Under the pieces are notes generated by a model, which did not search any database, was not told the DNA's origin, and saw only the letters and a program-made list of their open reading frames with translations. A stretch of 44,710 nucleotides of DNA from Escherichia phage vB-Eco-KMB36, in sequence record OR525703.1; one strand, given 5' to 3'. Of the stretch, positions 3-44,701 are shown piece by piece (positions within the stretch are counted from its first letter, which is position 1; every line of letters starts with the position of its first letter). The position numbers and the translations under genes were made by a program.

Positions 3-1253
3 ATGAGTATTCAGCTATCCGCGCCACAGGCGCTGTTCCTTAATTGCGATAACAAATACAAGGCCTACGTAGGCGGCTTCGGTAGTGGCAAGACGTTTGT
101 CGGCTGCCTTGACCTGCTTACGTTTATGCTCAAGCACCCCGGCACGCGCCTGGGCTACTTCGGCCCGACCTATCCCGCCATCCGTGACATCTTCTACCCA
201 ACATTCGAGGAAGCGGCTAACCTGCTCGGCCTTGATGTGCTGGTTAAATCCGGAGACAAAGAGGTTGTGGTTACTCGCGGTAAGACGGTGCTCGGAACGG
301 TTATCTGCCGCTCTATGGATAACCCCGGCTCGATTGTGGGTTTCAAAATCGCCGCAGCATGCGTGGATGAGCTCGATGTATTGAGCCGAGAAAAAGCTGA
401 ACTGGCATGGAACAAAATCGTCGCCCGTATGCGTCTGGTTATCCCTGGTGTAACCAACCACATCTCCGTCACCACGACGCCGGAAGGGTTCAAGTTCGTC
501 TACGCCAAGTTCAAAGAGAACCCGACACCGAGTTACTCAATGGTGCAGGCTTCCACCCACGAGAACGCGCGATTCCTGCCGCCTGACTACATTAGCTCGC
601 TGACCGAGACTTACCCAGCGCAACTGATTAACGCGTACCTGAATGGGGAGTTCGTTAACCTGACATCCGGCAGCGTGTATTACGCCTACGACCGACGTAA
701 GCATCGCAGCAAAGAGACAATCCAACCGGGCGACACGCTGTACATCGGGCAGGACTTCAACGTTACGAAGAACGCCAGCGCCGTGTATGTGCAACGTAAA
801 GACGGCTGGCACGCGGTAGCAGAACTGAAGGGCCTGTTCGATACGCCAGATACCGTGCGTGTGATTACCGAGAAGTGGAAGTCGCAAGGCCACCGCATCG
901 TCGTTTACCCGGACGCCAGCGGCAAGAACCGCAAAACCAACTCGGCGTCAATCTCCGATATCGCCTTACTACAGCAGGCCGGTTTTGATGTTCGCGCTAA
1001 ATCCGCCAACCCACCGGTTAAAGACCGTGTTTTAGCCGTGAATACCGCGCTGGAAAAAGGTAAGCTGTGGGTTAACGACCACTTATGCCCTGAGATAGCG
1101 AAGACGCTGGAGCAGCAGGCATATGATGATAACGGAGAGCCTGCTAAAGACGGCGTCATTGACCATATGGCGGATGCTCTCGGCTATCCTGTAGTTTATG
1201 AGATGCCGGTGGTTAAACCAGTAATCAACATCCCGGTGACTTTCGCACTTTAA
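3..1253 (+). CDS. terminase large subunit
   Basis: 416-aa ORF with N-terminal P-loop GGFGSGKT; lies directly upstream of the portal gene; begins at window edge so true start uncertain. Confidence 0.75.
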   Translation: MSIQLSAPQALFLNCDNKYKAYVGGFGSGKTFVGCLDLLTFMLKHPGTRLGYFGPTYPAIRDIFYPTFEEAANLLGLDVLVKSGDKEVVVTRGKTVLGTVICRSMDNPGSIVGFKIAAACVDELDVLSREKAELAWNKIVARMRLVIPGVTNHISVTTTPEGFKFVYAKFKENPTPSYSMVQASTHENARFLPPDYISSLTETYPAQLINAYLNGEFVNLTSGSVYYAYDRRKHRSKETIQPGDTLYIGQDFNVTKNASAVYVQRKDGWHAVAELKGLFDTPDTVRVITEKWKSQGHRIVVYPDASGKNRKTNSASISDIALLQQAGFDVRAKSANPPVKDRVLAVNTALEKGKLWVNDHLCPEIAKTLEQQAYDDNGEPAKDGVIDHMADALGYPVVYEMPVVKPVINIPVTFAL

Positions 1254-2783: not shown

Positions 2784-4754
2784 ATGCTATTAACTTTAGC
2801 GCCACAGGGTTCATCTATGAGCTTACTTACATCTCTAATCAGCCACCAGATATGGCTGCAACGCACTGCATCCGGTGAGGTGAAAGACCTCGCGCCGTTC
2901 ATTAAGGAGATGCGGGACGAAATAAAACGGCAGGTGCTGTTATTCGGCGACGACGGGCGAAGCACCGCGCGACTGAATAAACTGTTACGCGACCTTGAAG
3001 AAGCACTTACCGCGCTTACCGGTGACTGGCGGACAAAGCTGACGGAAGACCTTAAGGAGCTTGCAGCGTATGAGGCTGAGTGGAATGTGAAGACACTCAC
3101 GGCTAACGTTAATGCGGAATTTGTTACCCCGACCGCTGAACAGGTGTGGTCCGCCGCCGAGTTTCAGCCATTATCATTAAGCGACAAGCCAGTTGACTTC
3201 ACTAAGCTGATGTCGGGCTGGGGGGAAACAGAAGTCGCGCGCCTTGTAACAGGCGTTAAGATGGGCTTTGTACAAGGCCAGACAACACGGCAGATTGTTA
3301 AGAATGTTGTTGGTGCTGGTGGTTTGGCGGACATTTCAGAACGTAACGCGGCTACTGTAATCCGCACCGCGCTGTCTCATGTATCCAACGAGGCCCGTAA
3401 CGAGACGTACCGCCAGAACGACGACATCATCGAGAAGTACGAGTGGGTGTCGACGCTGGACAGCCGTACCAGTACAACGTGTTTCACGGCTGAAACAGAA
3501 TTAGCGCCCATCGCGGGGATGGACGCGGTAATGCGCGGACTCTATTCAGGAAAAATCCTTACCATCGAACTTTCCAACGGCGAGAAGTTCAGTGGCACCC
3601 CGAAACACCCTGTACTCACGCAATACGGATGGACTCCGCTTGATGAACTCGACCCAACTAAGCATGTCTTGTATACCACTGTTGACAAAGTGACTGTGCT
3701 CGAAACAGTGAAGAACATAAACATGCCAGCCAGAGCGGATTATATTTTTAATACGCTCGCTGATTTCCCCATCAGGAAAATGGTAAGCACGAGTCCCGCG
3801 GCAACAGATTTCTATGGCGATGGAGTGGGACTCAATGGCAAAATCGACATTGTACGGGCCGATTGCAAACTGCGGAACTACGTCCACGCCAGCGGAATTA
3901 AACAATTCAAAAGCGAGGGTTTCAGTCTTATTCATAGCGCCGCTTTGCTGTCGGACGATAGCTCTGGCGATTTTCTCCTCCGGGGTGAATGTCCTGTGAG
4001 TGTGCCCGCGCTTAGCGAGGCCAAGTGTTTTGACCATAGAATAGAAAACTGTTTTGCTTACTTGGGTCCTTCTTATGCACTCAATAGGCGGGACGCCGGA
4101 CTCGAACAATTCTATAGCCCTTTTTTGATTCAAAATGGTGTCGTTAGAAACCCAACCACGGGGTCGATCATGCATGAGTCCGAGCTTCTTGAGAAATGTT
4201 GTTACCGTGGTGGTAGTGACGCCGTAATTCTTGGCTATGATGCTGGCGGGAGTGCCATCTCGGTACAAAGAACAAATATCATCCGCATAAGCGTCGAGTT
4301 TAGAACGTGCCATGTTTATACCCTCTCTAGTAGTCAAGGATATTATACAGCAGGTAGTGCGATAGTCAAGAATTGCAGGGCCAGAGACGGAATGACGTGG
4401 GAAATCGGTAAAGGACCGATGCCCCCGGCCCATTTTGGGTGCAGAAGTACTACCGCACCAGTAATCAGTTCCGAGTTCGACTTCCTCGATAAAGGCGCGA
4501 AACGCGCAGCTAAGGGCGCAGAAGGTGGTACCCAGGTAAGCGCAGACACCACCTATTACGAGTTCCTTAAACAACAACCGGCATGGTTTCAGGATGAAGC
4601 ATTAGGGCCGGTTCGCGGTAAGATTTTCCGTAACAGCGGTATATCGCCGGAAGAGTTTCGCGTAATATCTGTAGATGGTTTCGGGAATCCGCTGACGCTT
4701 AAGCAGATGGCGGAACTCGATAAACGTGTTGCTGATTATCTGAAAGAGGATTAA
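2784..4754 (+). CDS. head morphogenesis protein (SPP1 gp7 / Mu F-like) containing an in-frame intein
   Basis: Extein motifs DSRTSTT...CRARDGMTWEIGKGPMPPAHFGCRS match the Mu F/gp7 signature once residues 233-530 are removed; alternative start ATG 2817. Confidence 0.7.
   Translation: MLLTLAPQGSSMSLLTSLISHQIWLQRTASGEVKDLAPFIKEMRDEIKRQVLLFGDDGRSTARLNKLLRDLEEALTALTGDWRTKLTEDLKELAAYEAEWNVKTLTANVNAEFVTPTAEQVWSAAEFQPLSLSDKPVDFTKLMSGWGETEVARLVTGVKMGFVQGQTTRQIVKNVVGAGGLADISERNAATVIRTALSHVSNEARNETYRQNDDIIEKYEWVSTLDSRTSTTCFTAETELAPIAGMDAVMRGLYSGKILTIELSNGEKFSGTPKHPVLTQYGWTPLDELDPTKHVLYTTVDKVTVLETVKNINMPARADYIFNTLADFPIRKMVSTSPAATDFYGDGVGLNGKIDIVRADCKLRNYVHASGIKQFKSEGFSLIHSAALLSDDSSGDFLLRGECPVSVPALSEAKCFDHRIENCFAYLGPSYALNRRDAGLEQFYSPFLIQNGVVRNPTTGSIMHESELLEKCCYRGGSDAVILGYDAGGSAISVQRTNIIRISVEFRTCHVYTLSSSQGYYTAGSAIVKNCRARDGMTWEIGKGPMPPAHFGCRSTTAPVISSEFDFLDKGAKRAAKGAEGGTQVSADTTYYEFLKQQPAWFQDEALGPVRGKIFRNSGISPEEFRVISVDGFGNPLTLKQMAELDKRVADYLKED
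3480..4373 (+). mobile_element. intein (Hint domain, about 298 aa) in head morphogenesis protein
   Basis: Starts CFTAETEL, block B GTPKHPVLTQYGW, C-terminal VYTLSSSQGYYTAGSAIVKN followed by Cys+1; penultimate Lys instead of His. Confidence 0.6.
3546..4313 (-). CDS. putative homing endonuclease (tandem HTH + Vsr/DUF559-like nuclease) encoded antisense inside the intein
   Basis: 256-aa ORF from ATG at 4313 with upstream GAGAGGG; HTH-like TPASIIAKNYGVTTTTVTTFLKK and VSKTVFYSMVKTLGL; nuclease-like PYNVDFAIESHSIAIEI and ERIKNIIRSGWHVYVL; lies entirely within intein 3480..4373. Confidence 0.45.
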   Translation of the reverse strand: MARSKLDAYADDICSLYRDGTPASIIAKNYGVTTTTVTTFLKKLGLMHDRPRGWVSNDTILNQKRAIELFESGVPPIECIRRTQVSKTVFYSMVKTLGLAKRGHTHRTFTPEEKIARAIVRQQSGAMNKTETLAFELFNSAGVDVVPQFAIGPYNVDFAIESHSIAIEICCRGTRAYHFPDGEISERIKNIIRSGWHVYVLHCFEHSHFVNSGIQDMLSWVEFIKRSPSVLREYRVFRGATELLAVGKFDGKDFS

Positions 4755-4756: not shown

Positions 4757-5215
4757 ATGGGCTTTTTCAAAGTAACTGATGTTCCGTCACGTCGCGTTGT
4801 CCAGTTTGCTCGCGTGTCTGGCTCCGGCGAGAACGTGGTGTCTATTGGGGACGAAAGTGTACTAGGTACACCGGTAGACGACATGCCGTTTGCTGACAAG
4901 ACTGGTATTGCGCAGCCCGCGGCGGGTATGCTTTATGTGATTCCGTATCTGGCTGACGCAGGCGACGTGTACTTCTCGGCGCAACCGCAGGACGCTGAAC
5001 TGGCAGACGGCAGTGCAACTATCACTGTCGAAGTTAAGGCGGGCAAAGCGCCGTATACGCTTACCTGGTACAAAGACGGAAAGGAAGTGGTAAACGCCCC
5101 TGAAGAGGCTTTGTCTCTGACGGTTAACGCGGTCGGTGAATACTTCGTTAAAGTCACCGATGCCGGTGGAGTGGAGGCTGTGAGTAAAGCGGCGAAGGTC
5201 ACTAAGCCAGAATGA
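4757..5215 (+). CDS. Ig-like domain protein (possible capsid decoration)
   Basis: 152-aa ORF; C-terminal Ig-like strand pattern TLTWYKDGKEV...YFVKVTD. Confidence 0.5.
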   Translation: MGFFKVTDVPSRRVVQFARVSGSGENVVSIGDESVLGTPVDDMPFADKTGIAQPAAGMLYVIPYLADAGDVYFSAQPQDAELADGSATITVEVKAGKAPYTLTWYKDGKEVVNAPEEALSLTVNAVGEYFVKVTDAGGVEAVSKAAKVTKPE

Positions 5216-5218
5216 TAA

Positions 5219-5241
5219 GAGGCCCCGAAAGGGGCTTTTTT
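5219..5241 (+). terminator. rho-independent terminator
   Basis: GGCCCCGAAAGGGGC hairpin followed by TTTTTT. Confidence 0.7.
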
Positions 5242-5305
5242 AATGTCTGTGATTATTCCAGTTATTCCGCTCAATTGTAAATGTTGGAATAAACTATTCG
5301 AATAG

Positions 5306-5334
5306 TTGACTTTTCACTAAAAATGTGCTAAGCT
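5306..5334 (+). promoter_or_regulatory. sigma70-like promoter (copy 1 of repeated element)
   Basis: TTGACT, 17-nt spacer, TGcTAAGCT extended -10; CTATTCGAATAG palindrome abuts the -35. Confidence 0.5.
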
Positions 5335-5340
5335 CCACCT

Positions 5341-5541
5341 GAGCTTGTGAAGTATGAACAAGCGACCGCGGCGCGGGCAGGTAACGGAGCGGGACGTAAG
5401 TCCTGAGTGTAGTTACGCTGACGCGTTCGGAAGGGCCATACTCTATTGCTTGTGTAAAAAGTAACTGGTTTACTGAGATTACGCCGTTTCTATGTTTAAA
5501 TGATAAGGACTAGCGCCCCGCTTTATGGCGGGGCTTTACTT
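5341..5541 (+). ncRNA. candidate small RNA of about 200 nt, paralog A
   Basis: No ORF; bounded by the promoter and a GCCCCG/CGGGGC hairpin plus U-tract at 5513..5541; conserved 5-prime hairpin GCTTGT..ACAAGC and box TTCGGAAGGGCCATA shared with the copy at 36997..37210. Confidence 0.35.
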
Positions 5542-5558
5542 ATCGAGAAAGGAGAAAC

Positions 5559-5945
5559 ATGAATCTTAAAGCAACTGTCGTAGCGGGCGCATGTTTCATA
5601 ATCCTGGCTTACGCACACGGCATCTACCAGTATCGCATCGGCTGGAACGAAGGCCGGGCGAATCTCGTTTCGCAGCAACAGCAGAAAGCACAGGCTGAGT
5701 TAGCGAAGAAAACACAACGGCAGCAGCAGGATGAATCAAAGGCCGCGGCAGCTGACAACGAAGGCAAGACGAAATCAGAGGTGATTACCCGTGAAGTCGT
5801 TAAGTACATTAAAACGCCTGGTCGCAGCGTGTGCACTTTCGACGATGCTCGCGTCCTGCTCAAGTCCCGCGCCGTCGCAAACGCCAATTCCATCCCCGGA
5901 TACGACGATGATGCAGCCTCCGTGCAAACTGGCGCCGCCAAGTAG
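5559..5945 (+). CDS. Rz-like i-spanin
   Basis: N-terminal transmembrane segment VVAGACFIILAYA then Q/A/K-rich coiled-coil region; Rz1-like ORF embedded in +1 frame. Confidence 0.55.
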   Translation: MNLKATVVAGACFIILAYAHGIYQYRIGWNEGRANLVSQQQQKAQAELAKKTQRQQQDESKAAAADNEGKTKSEVITREVVKYIKTPGRSVCTFDDARVLLKSRAVANANSIPGYDDDAASVQTGAAK

Positions 5946-6054
5946 CGACGCGGACGAGGATTTAGCTATCGACGTCCAGAACGCCGAATGTGTGCGGCAA
6001 CTGAGACTGAAAGTGTTCATGTTGCAGGATTACGTGAGGAATATTCTGGAATAG
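5791..6054 (+). CDS. Rz1-like o-spanin lipoprotein
   Basis: Signal peptide with lipobox LASC, then proline-rich mature region; +1 frame relative to the Rz-like gene and extending past its stop. Confidence 0.6.
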   Translation: MKSLSTLKRLVAACALSTMLASCSSPAPSQTPIPSPDTTMMQPPCKLAPPSSDADEDLAIDVQNAECVRQLRLKVFMLQDYVRNILE

Positions 6055-6136
6055 TTGCCTTGTATGTTGGAATAATTTATTCTTGACATGTAAATCCGGG
6101 AGGCCCGGATTCCAACGTCCAGGGGACATACTGACT

Positions 6137-6838
6137 ATGAATCGTTTTTTACGCTATCCGTTCCAGGAAGAAGCTGGGGCTGAAGATAAATCTGGTGGCG
6201 GTGACGCGCCGAAAATGTTCACAGCCGAAGAAGTTCAGGCGCTGATTGAGAAAGAAGTTGCCGGACTTAAGGCTAACCAGGAAGCATTGCTGGCAGAGAA
6301 GAAAGAAGCCGCTCGCAAAGCAAAAGAGGCTGAAGAAGAACGGCAGCGCGCACACCAGGAGGCGTTAAAAGCCGCCGGTAAGATGGACGAGTTCGAAAAG
6401 ACTATTCGTAGCCAGTATGACCCGGTGTTAGCCGAGAAAGATGGTCGCATCTCCAAAATGGCGGAGCGCATCCTCGGCAGCGAACGTAAGGCAGTGTTAG
6501 GCTCTTTCGCGGGTGACTTTATTACCCCGGAAGCAGTAGACATTCTTGCACCGTTCGTTAAGACTGAGTTCGAAGGCGATGACGTGGTTACTAAGTTTGT
6601 CGGTGCAGATGGCAACGTAATCACGACTGACCCGGAACAGTTCCGCAAATACCTGCGCGAACACAAAGCGTTTTCGCATTTGATTAAAGCAAATGCAGCT
6701 TCCGGCGGCGGGGCTTCCGGTGGCAAAGGCGGCGGGGCCGCACCAGCGTTTAAAGACATGAGTGAAGCGGAGCGTTTAGCTCTGTATAAATCGAACCCTG
6801 CCGAATTTGAACGGCAACTTAAAGCCCTGAGGAAATAA
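6137..6838 (+). CDS. scaffolding protein
   Basis: Charged coiled-coil-rich ORF immediately upstream of major capsid gene; ATG 6137 preferred over TTG 6083. Confidence 0.55.
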   Translation: MNRFLRYPFQEEAGAEDKSGGGDAPKMFTAEEVQALIEKEVAGLKANQEALLAEKKEAARKAKEAEEERQRAHQEALKAAGKMDEFEKTIRSQYDPVLAEKDGRISKMAERILGSERKAVLGSFAGDFITPEAVDILAPFVKTEFEGDDVVTKFVGADGNVITTDPEQFRKYLREHKAFSHLIKANAASGGGASGGKGGGAAPAFKDMSEAERLALYKSNPAEFERQLKALRK

Positions 6839-10051: not shown

Positions 10052-10411
10052 ATGAGCACCGCTTTCAGTAAACGTATGCAAGGCGTCGGTACACGCCTGC
10101 TAACCAAATTCGGTAGCACGGTATCTCTTGTTCGCGCTGGCTCGAAAGTGTGGGATGAAGTTCTCGGTGAGTATGTCTGGTCCGCGGATGAAGTGCTGCC
10201 GTTGAAAGCTGTTCCGGTTCCGGTAAACGCAGGACTGGTGAACGGTACGACGATTCAGGCGGGCGACATGATTGTTAAAGCCGATTGCAGCGTCGTTCCG
10301 AAGATGGAAGACAAGGTACAATTCGGCGGCGAGCAATGGTCTGTCGTAGGTATCGAGAAGAAGATGGTTAACGACGATGTCGTGGCGTATTTTATTCAGG
10401 TTAGAAAATGA
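10052..10411 (+). CDS. head-tail adaptor-like protein
   Basis: ATG 10052 with AAGAGG RBS preferred over ATG 9971, which lacks an RBS. Confidence 0.45.
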   Translation: MSTAFSKRMQGVGTRLLTKFGSTVSLVRAGSKVWDEVLGEYVWSADEVLPLKAVPVPVNAGLVNGTTIQAGDMIVKADCSVVPKMEDKVQFGGEQWSVVGIEKKMVNDDVVAYFIQVRK

Positions 10412-12416: not shown

Positions 12417-12899
12417 ACCGTGGTTCTCGTGGAACCCTAAATCTCTTTCAGCAACTCTCCTCGCGGCAACTGCATCTAGTAGCGTTTTAAAGCATCCGAT
12501 GTGTGTTTTTACGTTATTGTTGAATATCTGTGCGTACCACAACCTTTCTTTCGCGTTCCAGTAAACCCCGGTTACTCCTGATTTATTATTACGCTGTTTT
12601 GACATATTTTTATGGTTTTCCGCATTGGACTTTTTAGCTAAGTTAAGCGGTCTATTGTTTATTCGGTTATGGTCTAGATGGTCTATTTGATCTGACGAGG
12701 TTAGCTTATCGTTAGGATTGTTTAAGTCCCAAGCTATACGGTGCGCCGCGTGCCATTTACCTCTGAAAAATATCCTTCTATATCCGTCTCGCTGTACAGT
12801 ACCTGCCTCCTCTCCAGCCTTAGCCCTCCCGGAACGTGTTACTCTGTTAAATATCCTTCCTGAAATTAAGTCGTATATGAAAAATTCATTCCAGTCCAT
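12411..12899 (-). CDS. HNH homing endonuclease with AP2 DNA-binding domain
   Basis: IDHLDHNRINNRPLNL HNH core and AP2-like SGVTGVYWNAKERLWYAQI; start taken at the ATG 6 nt after AGGAG. Confidence 0.75.
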   Translation of the reverse strand: MDWNEFFIYDLISGRIFNRVTRSGRAKAGEEAGTVQRDGYRRIFFRGKWHAAHRIAWDLNNPNDKLTSSDQIDHLDHNRINNRPLNLAKKSNAENHKNMSKQRNNKSGVTGVYWNAKERLWYAQIFNNNVKTHIGCFKTLLDAVAARRVAERDLGFHENHGK

Positions 12900-12918
12900 A
12901 ATCATCTCCTGTTGCGAT

Positions 12919-12943
12919 AAGGCCCCGAAAGGGGCCTTTTTCT
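12919..12943 (+). terminator. terminator-like hairpin
   Basis: AAGGCCCCGAAAGGGGCC followed by TTTTTCT on the plus strand. Confidence 0.5.
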
Positions 12944-13173
12944 CACTCATCAATATTACTCCTGTACTCCCGTAACTTCTCCAGACTTTCAATTGCTTCA
13001 GCTAAGTCTGTTCCGGTGTCCTTGTGGCCACGCAAGCCCATACACAACAGCTTCTTCAATGCGTGTTGCAACGCCGGGTCGCGGATGTCGAAGGCACGCA
13101 GCACATCGTAAACGTCTACCGTCATAGTGCTGCCGTGGGTATTTGTCATTGTGCGGTTGTATTTATTTGTCAC
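12943..13173 (-). CDS. hypothetical protein
   Basis: 76-aa ORF, coupled to neighbours. Confidence 0.4.
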   Translation of the reverse strand: MTNKYNRTMTNTHGSTMTVDVYDVLRAFDIRDPALQHALKKLLCMGLRGHKDTGTDLAEAIESLEKLREYRSNIDE

Positions 13174-13363
13174 TGTTAACTCTCTTAAATCGGGCTATGC
13201 CTGACTCGTTAATGTTGCCTATTTCAAAGAAGCTGCGATATTTAGGCGAATACATTCTTACGTCGCCATTCTCTAGGGTGACCCCTTCATATACAGCGCC
13301 TACTTCGAATCCATTTTTCTCCGCGTACGGACTCACATCGGTGCATTCATACATATCTTTCAT
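13163..13363 (-). CDS. hypothetical protein
   Basis: 66-aa ORF. Confidence 0.4.
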   Translation of the reverse strand: MKDMYECTDVSPYAEKNGFEVGAVYEGVTLENGDVRMYSPKYRSFFEIGNINESGIARFKRVNSDK

Positions 13364-14490
13364 CCCAGCATCTCCGGTGAAATAGTTAAACGTGCGACCT
13401 CGCCATATTCGGCACTATAGGTAATTACATTTGCACTACGACCTGACATCCACCCGCCGCGGGAGGCGTAGGCGTCTTTAGCTGCTAAGGTGCGGTGTTG
13501 CTCAACAATCATGTTACGGCTTTCTACAATCTTCTGGTGGTGTAGGTGGCCTACGTGGGCGTAGCTGTAAACGCTCTCTCCGAACGCTTTGCGGAACTTG
13601 GCAATCATAACTGGCTCGATAGCGTCGAATCGTGCTTTATGCCCGTGGTGGAAGAACAGCGTCGTTTTGCCGTGTTGAACCATCTTGTAAACATCCGGCG
13701 ACGTATCGACGAACACACGCGGCTCATTGTCGTACAGCGTACTGAACATCTCAGCCAGCCAAATCATCCCGCTTTCGTCGTGGTTCCCTTGCACGATAAG
13801 CAAGCGAACAGTTTTATGCTTAACCAGTGCCATATCGACAACACGGCGTACCATACGAATCATGTAGCGGACCAGTTTCTGATAACGAGTGTCCGCATCA
13901 AGAACATGACCACTCGCTGGCGTAACCGCATCCAGACTATCGAAGTGCGCGAAGTCACCCAGCAGGTTAATAACCCCAGTTCCTGCATCTGGTGCTTTTT
14001 GAAATGCAGCATCAAACCAGCGGGAGAACAGGTCTTCCGCAATCTTCATGTCCCAGTCGTCGCCGCTCTCGTCGGCCCAGGCCAGCATACCGAGATGGAA
14101 ATCAGACACGGTGTAAAGATTGAGCAGCTTGTCGTCGCGTTTGGCACGGGCCGCTTTAACCGGTGCAACGGGAGTAATCTCTGACTTCATGCCTTCGATT
14201 ATGGCTTTCATCAATTCAACCTGACGTTCGGCGTCAGTATCTGTCTTAACCCATTGCAGTTTAGTGTTGCCGAACTCGTCCACAAGCGACGACGTTCCTT
14301 TAATCTTGTAGCCGTCCGGGACAAGATGGCTAACGTCACGACCGTGACCTACGCCTTTCTTCGCCAGCTTCGCTTTACGGATACGAATAACTCGGTCTGA
14401 GATGCCGTATTTACGGGATATGTCGATAATCTTTGTTCCGGCGTTCAATTCTTCCTGTAACTGTTCGTCGGTTATTTTAATCTGGGCCAT
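13360..14490 (-). CDS. calcineurin-like metallophosphoesterase with N-terminal HTH
   Basis: Motifs VSDFHLG, GDFAHFD, GNHDE, HHGH, GHLHH; N-terminal IDISRKYGISDRVIRIRK HTH-like segment. Confidence 0.7.
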   Translation of the reverse strand: MAQIKITDEQLQEELNAGTKIIDISRKYGISDRVIRIRKAKLAKKGVGHGRDVSHLVPDGYKIKGTSSLVDEFGNTKLQWVKTDTDAERQVELMKAIIEGMKSEITPVAPVKAARAKRDDKLLNLYTVSDFHLGMLAWADESGDDWDMKIAEDLFSRWFDAAFQKAPDAGTGVINLLGDFAHFDSLDAVTPASGHVLDADTRYQKLVRYMIRMVRRVVDMALVKHKTVRLLIVQGNHDESGMIWLAEMFSTLYDNEPRVFVDTSPDVYKMVQHGKTTLFFHHGHKARFDAIEPVMIAKFRKAFGESVYSYAHVGHLHHQKIVESRNMIVEQHRTLAAKDAYASRGGWMSGRSANVITYSAEYGEVARLTISPEMLG

Positions 14491-19386: not shown

Positions 19387-21932
19387 TCCTGCACTACACG
19401 CGAAACGCTGATGGCGCTTTCGACCGTACAAAACACGTCGGGATGCCGATGGAGTTTGTCATTAACCGTATCCCGGACGGCGTGCCGGTGCGCGTCTACC
19501 TCGGCGAGATTGGCGATGATACTGATGTTACAGACGACTTCGACGCGCTTAAAGACGAAGACGCTGTGTACCACATTATAGAGGGTGCGGGTAGCGGGGC
19601 ACTTGGTGCCGTTAGTAAGGTGTTCGGTTTTATCCTTAAGCCAATTGCCAAGTTGTTTGGTCTGAACATGTCCGCAAACGCCAACTACACGGCGACTAAC
19701 AACCAGACAACGTCACCGAATAACAGCCTTACCGACCGCTCAAACAAACCACGCCCTTACGAGCGCTCCTATGACATCTGCGGGACTGTGCAGACAATCC
19801 CTAATGACCTGATGCAGACGTATAAGGCGTTCAACTCCACTGGTGCTTTGCTGGAGTATTCGTACTATGACGCAGGGCGCGGACATCTGCATATTGAGGC
19901 TGATGGTGTCACAGAGGGCGACACCCTGATAAGCGACATCACAGGTTCCTCTGTTGCCATATATGCACCGTATACGTCACCGAACAACACCACATCGCCG
20001 CAACTACAAATCGGCGACGTCATTGACCAGAAACTCTATGTGACATACTCCAACGACGACGTTGACGGTATTGTACTGAAAGCGCCGAACGACATCGGGG
20101 CCAACCCAAGCGCCGGTGGCACAGCTAAACGTATTTCAACCACAGGCTACATCTACGACCCGTCGGGCGACTCTGCTTTTTCTGAGTTTCTTAGCGTCGG
20201 TGATGTCGCGGTGCTTAGCAACTTCGATGTTGCTGACGTCACTAACCTGAACGGCTCGTTTGAGGTTTTATACGTTGACGACTTTGAGGTTCGGTTGTAC
20301 GTCGGGGATATAGGTAACTGGGGCAACCTTAATAGCGGAGAGACTTACGCACTTACAGAGCGTTCTGACACGTTTATCGGCCCGAGCAACACCTATGACG
20401 TATCTCTTACGGACTGGTATTACATGGTGCGCGGAGAGGTTGACCGGGTACTTGCTAACGTTGCCGGGCAGAACGGCCTCTACAAATACGACGGCGGCTA
20501 TAACCGCACCAGTGTAACCGTAGAACTCCAGTACCAGATGATTGATTCCCAACGCAACCCGTTGAGCGACATTTACACGGTACAGGCTACAATTACGGGC
20601 AACAATACTGATTACGTCGGTACGTCTATCTACGGGCAATTGCCTACTGCGTCGCGTTTCCGCGCCCGCATGCGCCGTATAACTAATTTCGACAAGGACT
20701 ACAACGGTACAGTAAGCGACGAGATAACGTTCATCAACCTGTACGGTCAGTCACTGGACACTACCCCGCATTACGGCAACCGAACTACAGTACATTGCGC
20801 CCGTAAACAGACACCACGCGCCGCCAGTATCGATAACCCTGAACTGCGCATGATTGCTACAGAGATGTGCTACAAATACCTCGGCAATGGGGTATTCAAC
20901 ACCGTAATGACACCTAACACTCAGGCGGTGCAATCACTAATTCGACTGGCCCGCGACCCGGCGGTAGGTAACTTAGAACTGACAACCGCAAACATGGACA
21001 AGTTACTTGCCGTGCAGGAAGAGATTGAATCCTATTTTGGCAGCGAATTAGCGGGACAATTCTGCTACACGTTCGACGACTACGACACCACGATGCAGGA
21101 CATCGTTCAGACTATAGCCGAAGCCGTATTCTGTACTGCGTACCGCAAAGGTGCAGATATTATGCTGCGATTCGACCGTCCGGTTGCGGGGCCTGAAATG
21201 GTGTTCACCCACCGCAGTAAGACGACCGGTACGGAGAAATGGACACGCACGTTCAATGATTCGACAACCTACGATAGCCTGTCGTTCTCGTACATCGACC
21301 CGGATACTAACGTACAGGAAACGATTTATATCCCGGAAGAACTCGGCGCAAACACCGAGGAATACGAATCGAAGGGCGTGCGCAACTATCAGCAGGCGTA
21401 CTGGCTGGCGTGGCGTCGCTATCAGCGCAACGCGTTAAGTAAAGTTGTCGTAGAGTTCGAAGCTACGGAAGAGGGTGCGCTCGCTACGCCCGGCGGCGTA
21501 ATCAGCGTGGTTAAAGGCTCCCGCATCGCGCCGCAGGATGGTTATGTTGTCGCCGTTAATGGGCTTACGCTTACGCTGTCGCAGCCGGTTACGTTTACTC
21601 CGGGGGATGACCACTCCATCATTCTTAAGAAGCGAGACGGTTCGGTGCAGAGTATCTCTGTTATCAAAGGAAGCCATGACCGCGAGGTGATTATGCTCTC
21701 TGCGCCGGAGGAAGCCATCTACACAGGGAATAGTGCGCTAAAAACTGAGTTTTCATTCGGCAACGAAGCAAGGCATAATGCACAGAAGATAGTTGTTTCT
21801 TCAATCGACCCGGGCGACGACCGCACGGTCAAGATTACAGGCTACAACTATGACGACGGATTCTATAAATACGACGGCGTCGCTCCATACGGTAGCGGTT
21901 TCTCCGACGGATTCAGCAATGGTTTTAATTAA
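19377..21932 (+). CDS. tail tip / host specificity protein (J-like)
   Basis: 851-aa ORF in tail tip block. Confidence 0.55.
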   Translation: MAIILHYTRNADGAFDRTKHVGMPMEFVINRIPDGVPVRVYLGEIGDDTDVTDDFDALKDEDAVYHIIEGAGSGALGAVSKVFGFILKPIAKLFGLNMSANANYTATNNQTTSPNNSLTDRSNKPRPYERSYDICGTVQTIPNDLMQTYKAFNSTGALLEYSYYDAGRGHLHIEADGVTEGDTLISDITGSSVAIYAPYTSPNNTTSPQLQIGDVIDQKLYVTYSNDDVDGIVLKAPNDIGANPSAGGTAKRISTTGYIYDPSGDSAFSEFLSVGDVAVLSNFDVADVTNLNGSFEVLYVDDFEVRLYVGDIGNWGNLNSGETYALTERSDTFIGPSNTYDVSLTDWYYMVRGEVDRVLANVAGQNGLYKYDGGYNRTSVTVELQYQMIDSQRNPLSDIYTVQATITGNNTDYVGTSIYGQLPTASRFRARMRRITNFDKDYNGTVSDEITFINLYGQSLDTTPHYGNRTTVHCARKQTPRAASIDNPELRMIATEMCYKYLGNGVFNTVMTPNTQAVQSLIRLARDPAVGNLELTTANMDKLLAVQEEIESYFGSELAGQFCYTFDDYDTTMQDIVQTIAEAVFCTAYRKGADIMLRFDRPVAGPEMVFTHRSKTTGTEKWTRTFNDSTTYDSLSFSYIDPDTNVQETIYIPEELGANTEEYESKGVRNYQQAYWLAWRRYQRNALSKVVVEFEATEEGALATPGGVISVVKGSRIAPQDGYVVAVNGLTLTLSQPVTFTPGDDHSIILKKRDGSVQSISVIKGSHDREVIMLSAPEEAIYTGNSALKTEFSFGNEARHNAQKIVVSSIDPGDDRTVKITGYNYDDGFYKYDGVAPYGSGFSDGFSNGFN

Positions 21933-30826: not shown

Positions 30827-30834
30827 TCTGACTC

Positions 30835-30859
30835 CGGTAAAAAGGCCCAATGAAGGGCC
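30835..30859 (-). terminator. rho-independent terminator
   Basis: On minus strand GGCCCTTCATTGGGCC followed by TTTTT, immediately upstream of the HNH RBS. Confidence 0.6.
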
Positions 30860-30880
30860 TTAGTTAAATTGATTCAGATA

Positions 30881-31507: not shown

Positions 31508-31562
31508 TTCTCGATTCCTCAGTTTTCAGTTTACTCCGGGAGCTGCCCGGCCAGTGATTAGA

Positions 31563-31591
31563 ACTATAATAGCTAACTATTCAGGTGTCAA
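31563..31591 (-). promoter_or_regulatory. sigma70-like promoter with AATAG-N4-CTATT palindrome
   Basis: Minus strand reads TTGACA, 17 nt, TATAGT; palindrome at 31568..31581. Confidence 0.55.
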
Positions 31592-31595
31592 CACT

Positions 31596-33106: not shown

Positions 33107-33149
33107 AATTCCGACCCTCAGTTAAAGCGGCCCTCGGGCCGCAGGATAG

Positions 33150-33650: not shown

Positions 33651-33681
33651 TTGTTTCTCTCCTCTCGTTTGGTATGGGCTA

Positions 33682-33744: not shown

Positions 33745-33774
33745 CACATATCAACTGACTAAGGAGTAATTGAC

Positions 33775-34005: not shown

Positions 34006-34007
34006 AC

Positions 34008-36269
34008 CTATTCCAAATCCTCCTCTGTCACTATCAGCATTTCATTCGGTTCGTATATTGTCTTCGGAATCTTGTTATCGTTTATGCCCCACGGCAACCG
34101 GTATTGCTTAGGGATCGGCCTGTTGTTGTTATCCAGCCCCGAGACTATAACCCCAGCCTCGTGCATCTCTTCCAGTTTCTTTCGAAGGTCGTTATTAGCG
34201 TTAATTGGTACGCCGTAACTATCCTCTTTCGCGGCTTTGACGATAGCGGACATAGAAAACCCCCGCTTGTCGTCGCCCTGCTCCTGCAATTTACCCAATG
34301 CGTAAATAACCGTAGCCTCTTTGGTGTCCAGTTTCTCGAACTGGCCCACCTTTTCTTTAACGGCTTCCTTCTGTTCGTCGGTCATACCTTCTACTTTCTT
34401 CACGAAGACAGAGAAGGAGTTAAAGTTAACAAAGACATCGATGTGCGGATTTCCTGCGTCAAAATCGCGGACATCATCACTACTGTACCCTTCCGGTAGT
34501 CCCATGAAATTGTGAGTTGGTTCTTTCTTTTCAGGTGGTTCCGCTATCTGAATCTTCTGTATTACGAACCCTCTCGCTTTCTGCCGTTCTCCGTTTCGAT
34601 TCTTTATGTGATACAGGTTTATCTCTAAGTTATTGTCGTTGTCCGGCTTATGCAGGAACATCCCGTTATCAATGGAGTTGTGAAAGTCACTTCCACCCTT
34701 CGGCATCATGCCGTTTTCGGATGGCACAGTTTCGTCGATGTTTTTAGTTGGGTGCACCATAGCGCCTACTGCGGCGTTCAGCGTCGACGCTATTTCGTTA
34801 AGTGCCTGTGCTGCTTCTTTCATCGACCTGTTGTCGTTCTCGTCGAAGCCCGGTATGCAAGTTTGCAGAGTATCAAACGTAACCTTTACAATTTTCTCTT
34901 CACCGGCGACACGGCGCATCATTCTCACCGCCTGGCGGCGCCACGTCTCATCGAGTAAGTTACACCCATCCGCAACACAATCGATAATGTGCAAGCGGTC
35001 AAGGCTGTCACCGAGGGCGATTTGCAAAGACTTTTTATGCCGCTCGAATGACTGCGCACCTTCACCCGCGAAAATAAATGCATGCCCTTCTGCGACCTCT
35101 GCCCCGCCGAACGCATATCTTTTTTCAGCGGCTATAGCGGCGTCAATCGCCATACTAAATGTTGACTTACCGGTATGCGATTTTGCGCAAATGTAGAATG
35201 ATTCGTTAGTCTGCATAAGGCCATCTACGACGGAGTAAGCAGGTTCTTTTTCAACTTCCGGCTCGTCTTCAAGGTCTTCCAGCGTGCAAGTTACAGGCTC
35301 TTCGTTCTCTGTGCGGTGCAATTCCTCAATCTCTTCGTCCGGTAAATCAGGCAAAGCCGCACGGATGCTGTTAATACTGATAGGTTGCTTGTCTACGTTA
35401 AGCTCGTCTGGGAGGCCACACATACGCAGGGCCAAATGTTGCCGGCGGTTAAGCTCGGTGCAAGCGCCGTTGTTTGTGTGCTGACACACGAAGCGCACTT
35501 CTTTACCGTCAAGCATGATGCTGGTGGAGCCTTTTCCGGTGTGCAGGTGTTCGTTAGGGCAAGGCACTTCGTACCCGCGACCGGAAGATAGAGCGTCAAG
35601 GCCAAGCTCCGCTTCGCAGAAATGAGCTATATCTGCGTTAAGCCCGTGCTCATCGGCAGCAAGCGTCTTAGCTTCACGTTTACGCAACCCCATCTCTTCG
35701 GCTTTCTTGATGTACCGCTCGGCACGGATAACACGCCCTTCTGTAACCGTTATCTTCGACTCTTTATGCGGCAGGTAGATAAGGCGGTTGCCGTCTTCTG
35801 TGCAGTGGTCGCGCAATGCTTCGTCTATTTCTAACTCCGCACAAATAGCCCGTTGCACCATCCACGCGTCGTTAGAGTTGAACGGAGTGCGAGCCGGAAC
35901 CAGAACGCGGAAAGCGTAGTCACCGTTTTTACACGCGTGCTGGTGCGACGCCGTTGTGTGCAGAATATTGAAGAACGGCGCGTTCTTGAATTTGCGGGTG
36001 AGGTCGCGGTACTGGGTACGGTTTAGATGGTCGAAATCGAACTTAACCACACTGTCTTCCAGAATCGCGTTTTTACGACGACCGCCAACAGGCGCAATAG
36101 CTTTCTGCTTAATCTTGGCAGCGTCGTACTCTTCCTTAGTCCAAGACGGGTCCACGGACAAACGCTTCGATGTATCGCAGACATACTCGACAAACTGCTC
36201 CAGCGGCATTTCACGCGCTACAGGGTTTTTATCGAATGTGTTACGCAGTGTTGCAAAAACAATATTCAT
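34008..36269 (-). CDS. replication protein, primase/helicase-like P-loop NTPase
   Basis: 753 aa; Cys/His zinc-binding segment CPNEHLHTGK...CQHTNNGAC; Walker A-like AKSHTGKST. Confidence 0.55.
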   Translation of the reverse strand: MNIVFATLRNTFDKNPVAREMPLEQFVEYVCDTSKRLSVDPSWTKEEYDAAKIKQKAIAPVGGRRKNAILEDSVVKFDFDHLNRTQYRDLTRKFKNAPFFNILHTTASHQHACKNGDYAFRVLVPARTPFNSNDAWMVQRAICAELEIDEALRDHCTEDGNRLIYLPHKESKITVTEGRVIRAERYIKKAEEMGLRKREAKTLAADEHGLNADIAHFCEAELGLDALSSGRGYEVPCPNEHLHTGKGSTSIMLDGKEVRFVCQHTNNGACTELNRRQHLALRMCGLPDELNVDKQPISINSIRAALPDLPDEEIEELHRTENEEPVTCTLEDLEDEPEVEKEPAYSVVDGLMQTNESFYICAKSHTGKSTFSMAIDAAIAAEKRYAFGGAEVAEGHAFIFAGEGAQSFERHKKSLQIALGDSLDRLHIIDCVADGCNLLDETWRRQAVRMMRRVAGEEKIVKVTFDTLQTCIPGFDENDNRSMKEAAQALNEIASTLNAAVGAMVHPTKNIDETVPSENGMMPKGGSDFHNSIDNGMFLHKPDNDNNLEINLYHIKNRNGERQKARGFVIQKIQIAEPPEKKEPTHNFMGLPEGYSSDDVRDFDAGNPHIDVFVNFNSFSVFVKKVEGMTDEQKEAVKEKVGQFEKLDTKEATVIYALGKLQEQGDDKRGFSMSAIVKAAKEDSYGVPINANNDLRKKLEEMHEAGVIVSGLDNNNRPIPKQYRLPWGINDNKIPKTIYEPNEMLIVTEEDLE

Positions 36270-36462: not shown

Positions 36463-36675
36463 TTATTTACAACCAGAAAACCACGTGTGCTCGGAATCAT
36501 AGAAGCGGCATTTACTTAACACGTCTACCGGCATCTTAATAATTCGCGTCGGTTCCGACAAATGATTAGGTTTACATATTTCTGCATAGAATCCGCTGTC
36601 GGTAATTTCTGACGCAAACTTAAACCAGTATTTAACTTTACCGTTTTCAAAGTAACAACCCATACGCCCAATCAT
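36463..36675 (-). CDS. hypothetical protein
   Basis: 70-aa ORF. Confidence 0.4.
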   Translation of the reverse strand: MIGRMGCYFENGKVKYWFKFASEITDSGFYAEICKPNHLSEPTRIIKMPVDVLSKCRFYDSEHTWFSGCK

Positions 36676-36854
36676 TTCACATTCTCCTTAATCCACGCTT
36701 CAACTTTATTACGGTCGAATGTACCAGGTAAACGGCGACCCATAACTTTAATACAACAGTCGGGGAATTTGCCGCTGCGTAACCAGTTATTAATTGTCTG
36801 ACGTGTCACCCCAATACGCTCGGCTACTTCATTCTGTGTCATGTACTGTTGCAT
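36672..36854 (-). CDS. AlpA-like HTH DNA-binding protein
   Basis: MTQNEVAERIGVTRQTINNWLRSGKFP; ATG 36854 with AGGAG RBS. Confidence 0.55.
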   Translation of the reverse strand: MQQYMTQNEVAERIGVTRQTINNWLRSGKFPDCCIKVMGRRLPGTFDRNKVEAWIKENVK

Positions 36855-36885
36855 TTTTATATCTCCTGTTTGTTTGGTGAAACCG

Positions 36886-36914
36886 AGTATAGGATAGCGG
36901 GGATGTAAAAGCAA
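36886..36914 (-). promoter_or_regulatory. candidate sigma70-like promoter of the early operon
   Basis: Minus strand reads TTGCTT, 17 nt, TATACT. Confidence 0.4.
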
Positions 36915-36961: not shown

Positions 36962-36990
36962 TTGACTTTTCACTAAAAATGTGCTAAGCT
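36962..36990 (+). promoter_or_regulatory. sigma70-like promoter (copy 2 of repeated element)
   Basis: TTGACT, 17 nt, TGcTAAGCT; identical to the promoter at 5306..5334. Confidence 0.5.
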
Positions 36991-36996
36991 CGTCCT

Positions 36997-37210
36997 GAGC
37001 TTGTGAAGTATGAACAAGCGACCGCGGTGCGCGGCAGGCGAAACGAGCACGTCTAGACGTGTGGAGTGAGGCTCGCTGGCGCATTCGGAAGGGCCATAGT
37101 CTATTGTAATTCCCGCCTAGGTATCTAAGTTACTGATTTGCCGTAGGTTAGAACCGCAAGCTCACTCACTCACTCTTGGTGCCTTCGGCACCACGTTCGT
37201 TTCGTTTCGC
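36997..37210 (+). ncRNA. candidate small RNA of about 210 nt, paralog B
   Basis: No ORF; shares promoter, 5-prime hairpin and TTCGGAAGGGCCATA box with 5341..5541; ends at GGTGCC-TTC-GGCACC hairpin plus U-rich tract. Confidence 0.35.
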
Positions 37211-38609: not shown

Positions 38610-38616
38610 AATTTAC

Positions 38617-41006: not shown

Positions 41007-41258
41007 TTGGATAAATTTACTGAAACAGTGACGGGGTGGCTTCTCGCTGCCGCGCTAGCCGGAGGGGTTATCGGACTACGGCAACATAAGTCTGTTATTT
41101 CTGGCCCCATCGACGGCTTCTGCTTTATCGCAACTGGCTTCACCTGCGCCGTATTCGGCGCACCTCTAGCGGCTCAATGGTTCGGCATTACCGGGGAGCG
41201 TGAAATCGCTCGGCGCACCTCTAGCGGCTCAATGGTTCGGCATTACCGGGGAGCGTGA
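41007..41258 (+). CDS. holin-like membrane protein, truncated by a 55-bp tandem duplication
   Basis: Two hydrophobic helices then frameshifted tail RRTSSGSMVRHYRGA; removing one repeat copy restores a 102-aa three-helix protein ending at 41370. Confidence 0.5.
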   Translation: MDKFTETVTGWLLAAALAGGVIGLRQHKSVISGPIDGFCFIATGFTCAVFGAPLAAQWFGITGEREIARRTSSGSMVRHYRGA

Positions 41259-41265
41259 AATCGCT
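41156..41265. repeat. perfect 55-bp tandem duplication
   Basis: CGGCGCACCTCTAGCGGCTCAATGGTTCGGCATTACCGGGGAGCGTGAAATCGCT occurs twice back to back. Confidence 0.85.
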
Positions 41266-41362
41266 GGTCTGGGTTTCATCATCGCTATTCTCTGGATGCC
41301 TATCTATTCTCGCCTTTCTGGCATCGTCGCCGGAGAATACATCACACGTCGAGGAGGCCCGG

Positions 41363-41635
41363 ATGAATGAGCTATTCTGGCTCGGCGGTATGCTGGCAAT
41401 CGGAGGCACATCGCTGTTTAATGTGTATCATCCCGGCGTTGACGACGGATTATTTGGCCGTGTGCTCTATATCCTGACTGCTATCGTCTGCGCCGCCGGG
41501 TGTATCCACCTGTTACAGGGCAGCATGTCGCCAACGCTGCCCGAGACGTTAATCACATTAGTTGCGCTGCGCCAGATTCGTCAGGCGTGGCTGTCGTATG
41601 GAGGACATAAGCGTGTCTCGAAACATTTCAGATAA
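41363..41635 (+). CDS. holin/antiholin-like two-helix membrane protein
   Basis: MNELFWLGGMLAIGGTSLF and ILTAIVCAAGCIHLL hydrophobic helices; upstream of endolysin. Confidence 0.5.
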   Translation: MNELFWLGGMLAIGGTSLFNVYHPGVDDGLFGRVLYILTAIVCAAGCIHLLQGSMSPTLPETLITLVALRQIRQAWLSYGGHKRVSKHFR

Positions 41636-42101
41636 TGGACTGCATTTCACCGCCGCGTTCGAGGGGTTCCGTGGTACTGCGTATCGTGCTACGCCGAATG
41701 AGAAATACCTGACTATTGGGTACGGAAGCTATGGCCCTCATGTGTATGAAGGACAGAAGATTACGAAGGGGCAAGGCCTCCTGTTACTGAATCGCGATAT
41801 GGCTAAGGCCGTAGCTGCGGTTGATGCCGCCGCGCACCATTCACTGACACAGGCACAGTTCGACGCTGTGTGTGACCTGGTCTATAACGCTGGCGCTGGC
41901 GTGATCGCCGCTACTACTGGCACGGGCAAGGCGCTGCGTTCCGGGGATATTGCGACGCTGCGGGCTAAGCTGGCGATGTTCATCAACCAGAACGGCAAAC
42001 CGCTACTTGGCCTGCGTCGCCGTACTGCGGGCCGTCTGGCGCTGTTCGACGGTAAACCGTGGCAGGAGGCTGAGGCTATTGGGCGCGCGGTGAAAGGTTG
42101 A
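41598..42101 (+). CDS. endolysin (T4 lysozyme-like, GH24)
   Basis: FEGFRGTAYRATPNEKYLTIGYG signature; alternative GTG start 41613 has a GGAGG RBS. Confidence 0.75.
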   Translation: MEDISVSRNISDNGLHFTAAFEGFRGTAYRATPNEKYLTIGYGSYGPHVYEGQKITKGQGLLLLNRDMAKAVAAVDAAAHHSLTQAQFDAVCDLVYNAGAGVIAATTGTGKALRSGDIATLRAKLAMFINQNGKPLLGLRRRTAGRLALFDGKPWQEAEAIGRAVKG

Positions 42102-44062: not shown

Positions 44063-44155
44063 TACATCCCGCCCAATCCCCTTATATAATCCCTTTAGAC
44101 GCGTAGGGCGCGTCTGGTGCGCTCTGATGGTCAGACGCATATGCAAGGGGATTCT

Positions 44156-44701
44156 ATGAAGCTGAAACTCAAGCAGCCATCGCCAGAGGTGGTGCAAGCT
44201 GCACATGAAGAAGCTGTTAGCGCAAACCGCCGCCGTAAGCGACCACGCGGCAAACAGAGCCTTTATCAATCATCCCGTAATTCCGCCGCGTTGTGGGACC
44301 CGGACTATTGCGACGCGTTAATCGAGTTCTTCGACCGCACGTCATGGGAACTTGTGCCTACCTCCAAAGGCGACGAACGCCCGCTGATTCAGGACAAACC
44401 GCCGTCACTGGCCCGCTTTGCCTTACGCATCGGCGTCACTATCCCGATTATTAAGCTGTGGCTGCGCGAGATTCCCGCATTCGCAGAAGCATGGGAGACA
44501 GCGCAGGCATTGGAAGAGGCATACTTCACTGAGACAGGGGCCGCAGGTATCTCTGCTACGTTTGCCGCTGCGAAACTTGGCCTTGGCAAAGAGAAACCAG
44601 TTGAATCCGCCGAAGAAACGGCACCGACTGAGATTATTTTCAGTGTTGCGGAGCCTGTAGGTAAAATCGTAACAACGAATATGGGCGAGGTAGAGGAATG
44701 A
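44156..44701 (+). CDS. putative terminase small subunit
   Basis: HTH-like SLARFALRIGVTIPIIKLWLREIPAF; ATG 44156 with AAGGGG RBS; assignment by motif and genome-end position only. Confidence 0.4.
   Translation: MKLKLKQPSPEVVQAAHEEAVSANRRRKRPRGKQSLYQSSRNSAALWDPDYCDALIEFFDRTSWELVPTSKGDERPLIQDKPPSLARFALRIGVTIPIIKLWLREIPAFAEAWETAQALEEAYFTETGAAGISATFAAAKLGLGKEKPVESAEETAPTEIIFSVAEPVGKIVTTNMGEVEE

Follow-up and report, generated by a model that had tools for sequence, protein, structure and literature searches.

In the lambda paradigm, the spanins form a complex that spans the periplasm and brings about outer-membrane fusion (PMC5295617, PMC6139136). The spanin census of 2018 includes a 'Jersey' family of i-spanins and o-spanins with 27 members, among them Jersey, SETP3, K1G, K1H and K1ind1-3 (Kongari et al. 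2018, PMC6139136). The genes of this family are overlapped, with an overlap of 155 bp, and the family is described as having two helices, polyQ stretches and, in the o-spanin, cysteines that are constant at positions 45 and 67 (PMC6139136). The T4 spanin genes PseT.3/PseT.2 are unlinked from those for the holin and endolysin, and for the T4 o-spanin a helix is predicted at the C-terminus, alongside two cysteines in the periplasmic part (PMC6139136). Here we describe how a candidate spanin pair in a 44,710-nt stretch of DNA from Escherichia phage vB-Eco-KMB36 (OR525703.1; the whole stretch is referred to as the window) compares with these systems.

The spanin gene pair and its family

An initial annotation of this DNA had proposed a two-component spanin pair at 5559..6054, and this proposal is supported by sequence features, by PHROG families and by near-identity to annotated spanins. 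Both ORFs lie on the plus strand at exactly the coordinates originally given. The i-spanin gene (5559..5945) has an ATG start, is read in frame 0 and codes for 128 aa; the o-spanin gene (5791..6054) has a GTG start, is read in the +1 frame and codes for 87 aa. The two genes share 155 nt. The i-spanin gene stops at 5945, whereas the o-spanin gene continues for a further 109 nt, to 6054, so that the architecture is overlapped (P2 type) and not embedded (lambda type). The arrangement had been described as 'embedded/overlapped', of which only the second term applies.

The i-spanin gene is preceded by a Shine-Dalgarno sequence, AAGGAG (5549..5554, plus strand), that was read from the sequence; 14 relatives conserve it in the form AAGG(A/G)G. 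As first noted, the product carries an N-terminal anchor: its only hydrophobic stretch spans residues ∼5–23 (Kyte-Doolittle 19-residue mean of 1.72). A single-sequence AlphaFold model places helices at residues 3–84 and 94–107, with pLDDT values of 75–90 up to about residue 60 and low confidence thereafter. The i-spanin is thus predicted to have a single transmembrane domain at its N-terminus, followed by a periplasmic domain that is mostly helical; of the coiled coil initially proposed, the model shows the helical character. It contains polyQ runs at residues 39–42 (QQQQ) and 55–57 (QQQ), and over its full length it belongs to phrog_2536, named 'Rz-like spanin' (5e-55).

The Shine-Dalgarno sequence of the o-spanin gene, GAGGT (5778..5782, plus strand), was read from the sequence inside the i-spanin gene; in Jerseyvirus Ent1 the site is identical and the start codon is ATG. 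The o-spanin begins with the n-region MKSLSTLKR, which leads into a hydrophobic core and then the lipobox LAS/C23, with Ser at position +2. Given the lipobox and the lack of Asp at +2, the protein is predicted to be sorted to the outer membrane. An alternative lipobox, VAAC at residues 11–14, was rejected because its hydrophobic core would be almost nil. The mature protein is 65 aa long, and all nine of its prolines fall within the first 30 residues, in agreement with the proline-rich mature part that was initially reported. A single-sequence model of low confidence shows a C-terminal helix at residues 55–86 (pLDDT 76–88). A unimolecular spanin of the T1 gp11 type, which combines a lipobox with a transmembrane domain at the C-terminus, does not fit: apart from the signal peptide the 87-aa protein has no hydrophobic segment, and it ends in an amphipathic, charged helix. 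The o-spanin matches phrog_5672 (4.5e-30) and phrog_1267 (1.6e-18), both named 'Rz-like spanin'.

Both proteins have cysteines in their periplasmic parts that could form homotypic intermolecular disulfides, namely Cys45 and Cys67 in the o-spanin and Cys92 in the i-spanin. The o-spanin cysteines are invariant in all seven sequences compared. Cys92 is present in six of seven; the Shemara i-spanin has no equivalent, so an i-spanin disulfide is not a feature of every family member.

Compared with Shashou and K1ind1, each of the two proteins is 92–95% identical to its counterpart (for K1ind1, 95% in the i-spanin and 93% in the o-spanin). Shashou is annotated with an i-spanin and an o-spanin whose starts are identical to those found here, and the RefSeq entry of K1ind1 names both genes 'Rz-like spanin'. 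Every published feature of the Jersey family was found in the vB-Eco-KMB36 pair, including the same 155-nt overlap, the polyQ runs of the i-spanin and, in the o-spanin, a proline-rich linker, a conserved C-terminal part and Cys45/Cys67. The differences are allelic only, such as a lipobox LASC with Cys23 in vB-Eco-KMB36 versus LSAC with Cys22 in K1ind1. We conclude, with a probability of about 0.9, that the two overlapped genes encode a two-component spanin belonging to the Jersey family. The pair was already known, being annotated in GenBank relatives and classified in the 2018 census, and as a discovery it carries little weight: the assignment is correct but ordinary.

Neither protein matched a Pfam Rz or Rz1 model, even at E-values up to 1, and the sole related Pfam match was to DUF2514, below threshold (E = 0.048; 14 bits versus a cut-off of 26). 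No NCBIfam spanin model was matched by either protein, and a sequence search of the PDB gave no match, and hence no solved structure, for either. Since Pfam, NCBIfam and the PDB yielded no spanin match, we rejected an assignment to either the lambda or the P2 family. Judged by sequence similarity, the pair is to be regarded as analogues of lambda Rz/Rz1 and not as detectable homologues.

Lambda Rz/Rz1 likewise consist of an anchored, helical inner-membrane protein and a proline-rich outer-membrane lipoprotein read in the +1 frame, with periplasmic cysteines. However, Rz1 is embedded, whereas the o-spanin gene of vB-Eco-KMB36 runs past the i-spanin stop; mature Rz1 has 40 aa versus 65 aa here, where a C-terminal helix is predicted and two cysteines are present; and the pair, unlike Rz/Rz1, lies apart from the holin and endolysin genes and lacks a Pfam match to either model. 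P2 LysB/LysC have the same layout, in that the o-spanin gene begins within the i-spanin coding sequence, is read in the +1 frame and continues past the stop, but their sequences show no detectable similarity to those of the vB-Eco-KMB36 pair. The P2 genes also sit in the lysis cassette, unlike the pair described here. With T4 PseT.3/PseT.2 the common traits are unlinked genes, a predicted o-spanin C-terminal helix and two cysteines; the T4 genes are separated and not overlapped, and no sequence similarity was detected.

Conservation of the two reading frames

Searches with tblastn found o-spanin homologues in 666 phage records and i-spanin homologues in 625, down to ∼35% identity. At the amino acid level, the i-spanin is ∼62% and the o-spanin ∼64% identical to the proteins of Jerseyvirus Ent1, and identity to the pairs of Cornellvirus Shemara and Dhillonvirus TheodorHerzl is 33–54%. 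The locus is colinear with that of Ent1 over all 496 nt. Among six relatives the signal peptides diverge, but the lipobox cysteine is always kept (LASC, LSAC, LSGC, LTAC, ITGC). The o-spanin motif D-x-D-x-D-L-x-x-D-V is invariant among the relatives compared.

An overlapping frame of this kind raises the question of whether 5559..5945 is the sole gene, the +1 ORF at 5791..6054 having arisen by chance. The ORF begins with GTG and lies largely inside another gene, and several GenBank records truncate or omit it. However, a six-frame scan gave 1214 start/stop pairs with a minimum length of 40 aa, and only two of these passed a simple filter for a lipoprotein-type signal; 5791..6054 is one of them, and the other, 35311..35484, is antisense within a large gene. 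The +1 ORF also has a Shine-Dalgarno sequence at the right distance and starts with ATG in Ent1. Relative to Ent1, no piece of the locus is better conserved than the C-terminal part of the o-spanin that lies outside the overlap; it is 86% identical in amino acids, as opposed to 61–63% for the i-spanin. In Shemara the two genes overlap by only 8 nt and both are still present, so that the o-spanin gene is nearly separate. The probability of a chance frame is thus close to nil, and this explanation is already refuted in practice. The conserved targeting cysteine, the conserved C-terminal part, the near-separate Shemara genes and the breadth of distribution together indicate that both frames are genuine genes under selection.

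In the GenBank records of many relatives the o-spanin gene is truncated or missing, and what the locus offers for annotation is a correct start for this gene. A pattern scan of viral contigs returned 13 loci, which were used as an outgroup; 12 were of the Jerseyvirus type, the pattern being mis-spaced by one base for Kagunavirus, and the remaining one (L015) had a Kagunavirus-like i-spanin and leader.

Genome position and proposed role in lysis

The region 5200..6140 matches 299 phage records and is ∼95% identical to Kagunavirus genomes (JSSK01, K1ind1-3, K1G, Shashou, Sciku). The window holds a complete genome (∼44.7 kb) of the genus Kagunavirus, that of a K1G/K1ind-like Escherichia coli siphophage of the Guernseyvirinae. 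The TerS gene (44117..44701; phrog_3064) is at its very end and the TerL gene (3..1253) at its very start, hence the window represents a whole genome that was opened at TerL by convention. Relatives of vB-Eco-KMB36 are headful packagers (PMC6763661), and the K1ind1 record was deposited as circular.

Initially, two holin-like genes and an endolysin gene had been located at 41007..42101, and this is borne out by PHROG and Pfam. The first holin-like gene (41007..41258) matches phrog_2359 (holin, 4.3e-19), and the second (41255..41635), which codes for a holin or antiholin, matches phrog_2508 (holin, 2.1e-32). The endolysin (41613..42101) belongs to the lysozyme family (Pfam Phage_lysozyme, 4.2e-26; PHROG endolysin), and its likely start is the GTG at 41613, which follows GGAGG. 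All three genes are on the plus strand.

The spanins had been placed about 35 kb from the holin and endolysin genes. This figure is accurate for the linear window (34953 nt) but does not hold on a circular map, where the distance is 8.2 kb: the endolysin stop is then 8167 nt upstream of the i-spanin start and on the same strand, and all large genes in between have the same orientation. Since the headful-packaged genome was opened between TerS and TerL, the 35 kb are an artefact of linear coordinates. The record of Escherichia phage 26 was opened elsewhere, and in it the two holin genes and the endolysin gene (12542–13599) and the spanin genes (21409–21904) form contiguous blocks, 7.8 kb apart. 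Distances in a linearised, circularly permuted genome are therefore misleading.

As originally reported, the pair does lie among head genes; its slot is between the Hoc-like and scaffold genes. The gene order is head morphogenesis, Hoc-like decoration, a gap, i- and o-spanin, scaffold and major capsid, and it is common to Kagunavirus (Shashou, K1ind1, phage 26), Jerseyvirus Ent1 and Serratia phage Tsm2. Cornellvirus Shemara has the same order with extra reverse-strand genes inserted. In Dhillonvirus TheodorHerzl, the spanin pair directly follows the minor capsid gene and is itself followed by a reverse-strand clamp gene, an unnamed gene in the scaffold position and then the major capsid gene. 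The spanin slot is therefore ancestral to a large lineage, comprising Guernseyvirinae and Dhillonvirus. The position, to which the initial annotation drew attention, is typical for the lineage and already published. Separation of the spanins from the holin and endolysin has been stated in a genome announcement, and in other genomes the spanins are early-numbered ORFs beside the head genes (PMC7203180, PMC9409062).

An exact 11-mer, TGTTGGAATAA, flanks the spanin unit (positions 5282 and 6065) and was considered as the mark of a mobile cassette. This idea was dropped because the 11-mer count, allowing two mismatches, is at chance level and because the 11-mer is lacking in Dhillonvirus, where the spanins nevertheless occupy this slot.

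The analysis bears directly on gene structure, targeting signals, topology features, conserved cysteines, family, position and co-orientation with the late genes. Since the literature searched contained no published lysis-defect or complementation test of any Jersey-family spanin, the assignment of spanin function draws on architecture and analogy, which suggest that the pair would disrupt the outer membrane and be expressed late. The pair would be expressed with the late structural genes. By analogy with lambda, the 128-aa product would be anchored in the inner membrane by its N-terminus and extend its helical domain into the periplasm, and the 87-aa product would be lipidated at Cys23 and, having Ser at +2, sorted to the outer membrane. 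The C-terminal parts of both proteins would bind each other, so that the complex spans the periplasm through the meshwork of the cell wall, and the conserved cysteines may form homotypic disulfides. The wall would restrain the complex until it is itself degraded, after release of the endolysin (41613..42101) by the holins (41007..41635); once freed, the complex would fuse or disrupt the outer membrane as the last step of lysis.

Alternatively, the pair might be an envelope module with another role, such as superinfection exclusion or receptor masking, exerted by the small outer-membrane lipoprotein (cf. T5 Llp and Cor) with the inner-membrane protein as its helper, and lysis would proceed without spanins. 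The lack of a lysis test in the literature on the Jersey family would allow for such a role, as would the location of the genes outside the lysis cassette and among head genes, and the proteins have no sequence link to proven spanins. We nevertheless consider this most unlikely. The pair displays the full spanin signature of an N-in anchor, a helical domain, an overlapped lipoprotein in the +1 frame and conserved cysteines, and the six-frame scan of 1214 start/stop pairs yielded no other plausible lipoprotein or spanin candidate in the genome. Moreover, the pair is universal and fixed in position across a large lytic lineage, whereas exclusion genes are typically patchy. Llp and Cor also act alone and are not known to have an overlapped inner-membrane partner. 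A two-component spanin therefore remains the preferred reading of the pair.

The region upstream of the spanin genes

The conserved promoter-like site and RNA element in front of the spanin genes are the only part of the locus that may hold new biology. The head genes upstream are closed by a strong intrinsic terminator after the Hoc-like gene (5221..5241, plus strand; GGCCCC-GAAA-GGGGC followed by T6), which is annotated as such in Shashou and Ent1. Downstream of it, a promoter-like site was read from the sequence at 5306..5334 (plus strand), with TTGACT and TAAGCT separated by a 17-nt spacer and with an upstream TG. The site is kept in 14 Kagunavirus and Jerseyvirus sequences, the Jerseyvirus form being TAGACT/TACGCT, but it falls below the threshold of a sigma-70 consensus scan.

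The promoter-like site is followed by a structured RNA region of ∼200 nt (5341..5547, plus strand), a leader or sRNA for which covariation was found. The 35 proposed pairs are 99.6% paired and eight of them show compensatory changes, compared with at most 48.6% paired in slide controls; these values refer to a structure derived from the same alignment that was used to score the pairs, and most of the changes represent a single Kagunavirus/Jerseyvirus split. Rfam gave no match in 5150..6200. An ORF of 36 aa is annotated within the region in Shashou; since it loses its ATG in Jerseyvirus, the region is regarded as non-coding.

Near the end of the RNA region, 24 nt upstream of the i-spanin start, a scan detected a GC-rich, terminator-like hairpin (5515..5534, plus strand), and the i-spanin ribosome-binding site follows 15 nt after it. 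Seven pairs of this hairpin are kept in all 14 sequences, two of them with compensatory changes, and the stem is maintained through C-G, A-U and G-C variants. Its U-tract, on the other hand, is poor and not conserved (TTTACTTAT in vB-Eco-KMB36 versus TTAGCGTAT in Jerseyvirus), and the hairpin is probably leaky as a terminator. A helix between 5344–5353 and 5538–5547 was considered as evidence for a read-through leader but was downgraded, because a local 5' hairpin fits the second copy of the RNA (see below) and the Jerseyvirus sequences just as well.

The promoter and RNA recur at 36962, where 30 nt of the promoter-like site are identical. This second copy lies in the gap at which ORF orientation switches from leftward to rightward. 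In Jerseyvirus Ent1, no second RNA copy was found within 30000–42391.

These observations bear on how the spanin genes are expressed. Rather than simply being part of a long late transcript, they could be the first cistrons of a unit transcribed from 5306, in which the ∼200-nt RNA and the hairpin could function in cis as a leaky attenuator or an anti-termination-type leader and so determine the level of spanin transcription or translation. The terminator at 5221..5241 would separate such a unit from the upstream head genes, and the promoter-like site and RNA structure, with its compensatory changes, are common to Kagunavirus and Jerseyvirus. Conservation of the hairpin stem but not of the U-tract, as well as the location of the second copy where rightward transcription is expected to start, would be consistent with this arrangement. 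However, the promoter-like site scores below threshold, the proposed helix between the 5' end of the RNA and the stretch before the ribosome-binding site has a competitor in a local 5' hairpin, and the covariation mostly reflects one split between genera. In addition, Dhillonvirus has its spanins in the same slot without the leader, and the copy at 36962 has no counterpart in the Ent1 interval searched. We therefore regard a separate unit as possible but, on balance, unlikely. A literature search for transcript maps of Guernseyvirinae retrieved nothing relevant. As a working model, we infer that the spanin genes are read through the hairpin, from the 5306 promoter and/or by anti-terminated late transcription.

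That Guernseyvirinae spanins are under dedicated RNA-level control, with the RNA acting in cis and not as a free-standing sRNA, appears improbable at present. If it were true, the RNA would be a processive anti-termination or attenuator element that allows passage of the head-block terminators or meters the expression of spanin, scaffold and capsid genes.

Structured RNA upstream of the spanins and its second copy

The window carries a conserved structured non-coding RNA at 5341..5547, with the Hoc-like gene on one side and the spanin genes on the other, for which a search of Rfam returned no match. Its core, ACCGCGG...TTCGGAAGGGCC, is invariant, and its central hairpin is built from three different stem sequences: one in this spanin-proximal copy (copy A), one in a repeat elsewhere in the genome (copy B) and one in Jerseyvirus.

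The promoter-like site and the start of the structured RNA recur on the plus strand at 36962..37190. Comparison of this region with 5306..5547 showed an identical block of 30 nt, starting at 5306 in copy A and at 36962 in copy B, and a second identical block of 34 nt, starting at 5338 and 36994, respectively. An nhmmer profile built from the spanin-proximal copy matched the copy at 36962 with E = 4e-10. The middle hairpin of copy B differs in sequence from that of copy A but is still formed, and a GGTGCC-TTCG-GGCACC stem-loop marks the end of this copy. Copy B is placed in a gap, with the last leftward ORF (36672..36914) on one side and, from about 37306, the first rightward ORFs on the other. 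When positions 30000-42391 of the Jerseyvirus Ent1 were searched for a second promoter and RNA copy, none was detected.

Repeats and a hairpin around the spanin unit

The sequence TTATTCC and its complement GGAATAA recur in clusters on either side of the spanin unit, at 5253, 5262 and 5286 (within 5253..5292) and at 6038, 6048 and 6069 (within 6038..6075). Among these copies is an inverted repeat (5263-5269/5285-5291) that is kept in all relatives compared (14/14). Exact copies of the 11-mer TGTTGGAATAA are confined to two positions, 5282 and 6065. The TTATTCC/GGAATAA copies may represent sites at which a regulator binds near the promoter-like sites.

A further element, at 6094..6139, consists of a hairpin (CCGGG-nGG-CCCGG) followed by GTCCAGGGGACATAyTGACTATG, and reaches into the start of the scaffold gene. 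Hairpin and downstream sequence are near-invariant across Kagunavirus, Jerseyvirus and Serratia phage Tsm2, while their flanks are divergent. The corresponding hairpin is annotated as a terminator in Ent1, yet no T-run is found 3' of it. We consider that the element may exert translational or transcriptional control over the scaffold and capsid genes.

Cargo genes and an intein-like insertion in the head block

The head block of the relatives Shashou, Shemara, Ent1 and Escherichia phage 26 forms a hotspot for cargo genes on the reverse strand, which are located in the portal/head-morphogenesis interval and in the Hoc-like/spanin interval. The cargo is a DNA polymerase III beta-clamp-like gene in both Shashou and phage 26 and an amidase gene in Ent1; in Shemara, a metallophosphatase gene and a small ORF flank the spanins. 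The window has no cargo gene at either site, but an intein-like insertion instead.

This insertion lies in the head-morphogenesis (Mu F-like) gene (2784..4754, plus strand); it is in frame, adds about 300 aa and accounts for the 656-aa length of the product, which in K1ind1 measures 358 aa. The inserted sequence gave weak matches to intein-splicing domains (Pfam, E = 8e-4; mini-intein structures in the PDB, E about 0.1). The same insert, at 99% identity, was found in only three phage records, one of which is annotated as 'minor head protein with inserted intein'. Opposite the head-morphogenesis gene, a 343-aa ORF (3546..4577, minus strand) has weak matches to HTH_7 and REase_MTES_1575; it could represent a gene for an endonuclease lying antisense inside the intein, or else a chance frame.

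Gene starts and annotation

The o-spanin is frequently mis-annotated in relatives, with many records affected. In some, the start is set too far 3', so that the signal peptide and lipobox are lost; in others, the gene is absent or labelled hypothetical. Mis-annotated examples are Ent1 gp08 (3823..3996 of locus L005) and phage 26 gp43 (10259..10405 of locus L020); the full-length Ent1 o-spanin starts at an ATG at L005 3733, preceded by GGAGG. The Hoc-like gene adjoining the spanins appears as 'tail protein' or 'fibritin' in various relatives' records. For the endolysin, the longest ORF (window 41562..42101) begins with a TTG at 41562 and shares 74 nt with the second holin gene; the GTG at 41613, which follows a GGAGG, is the more likely start and gives a protein of about 162 aa.
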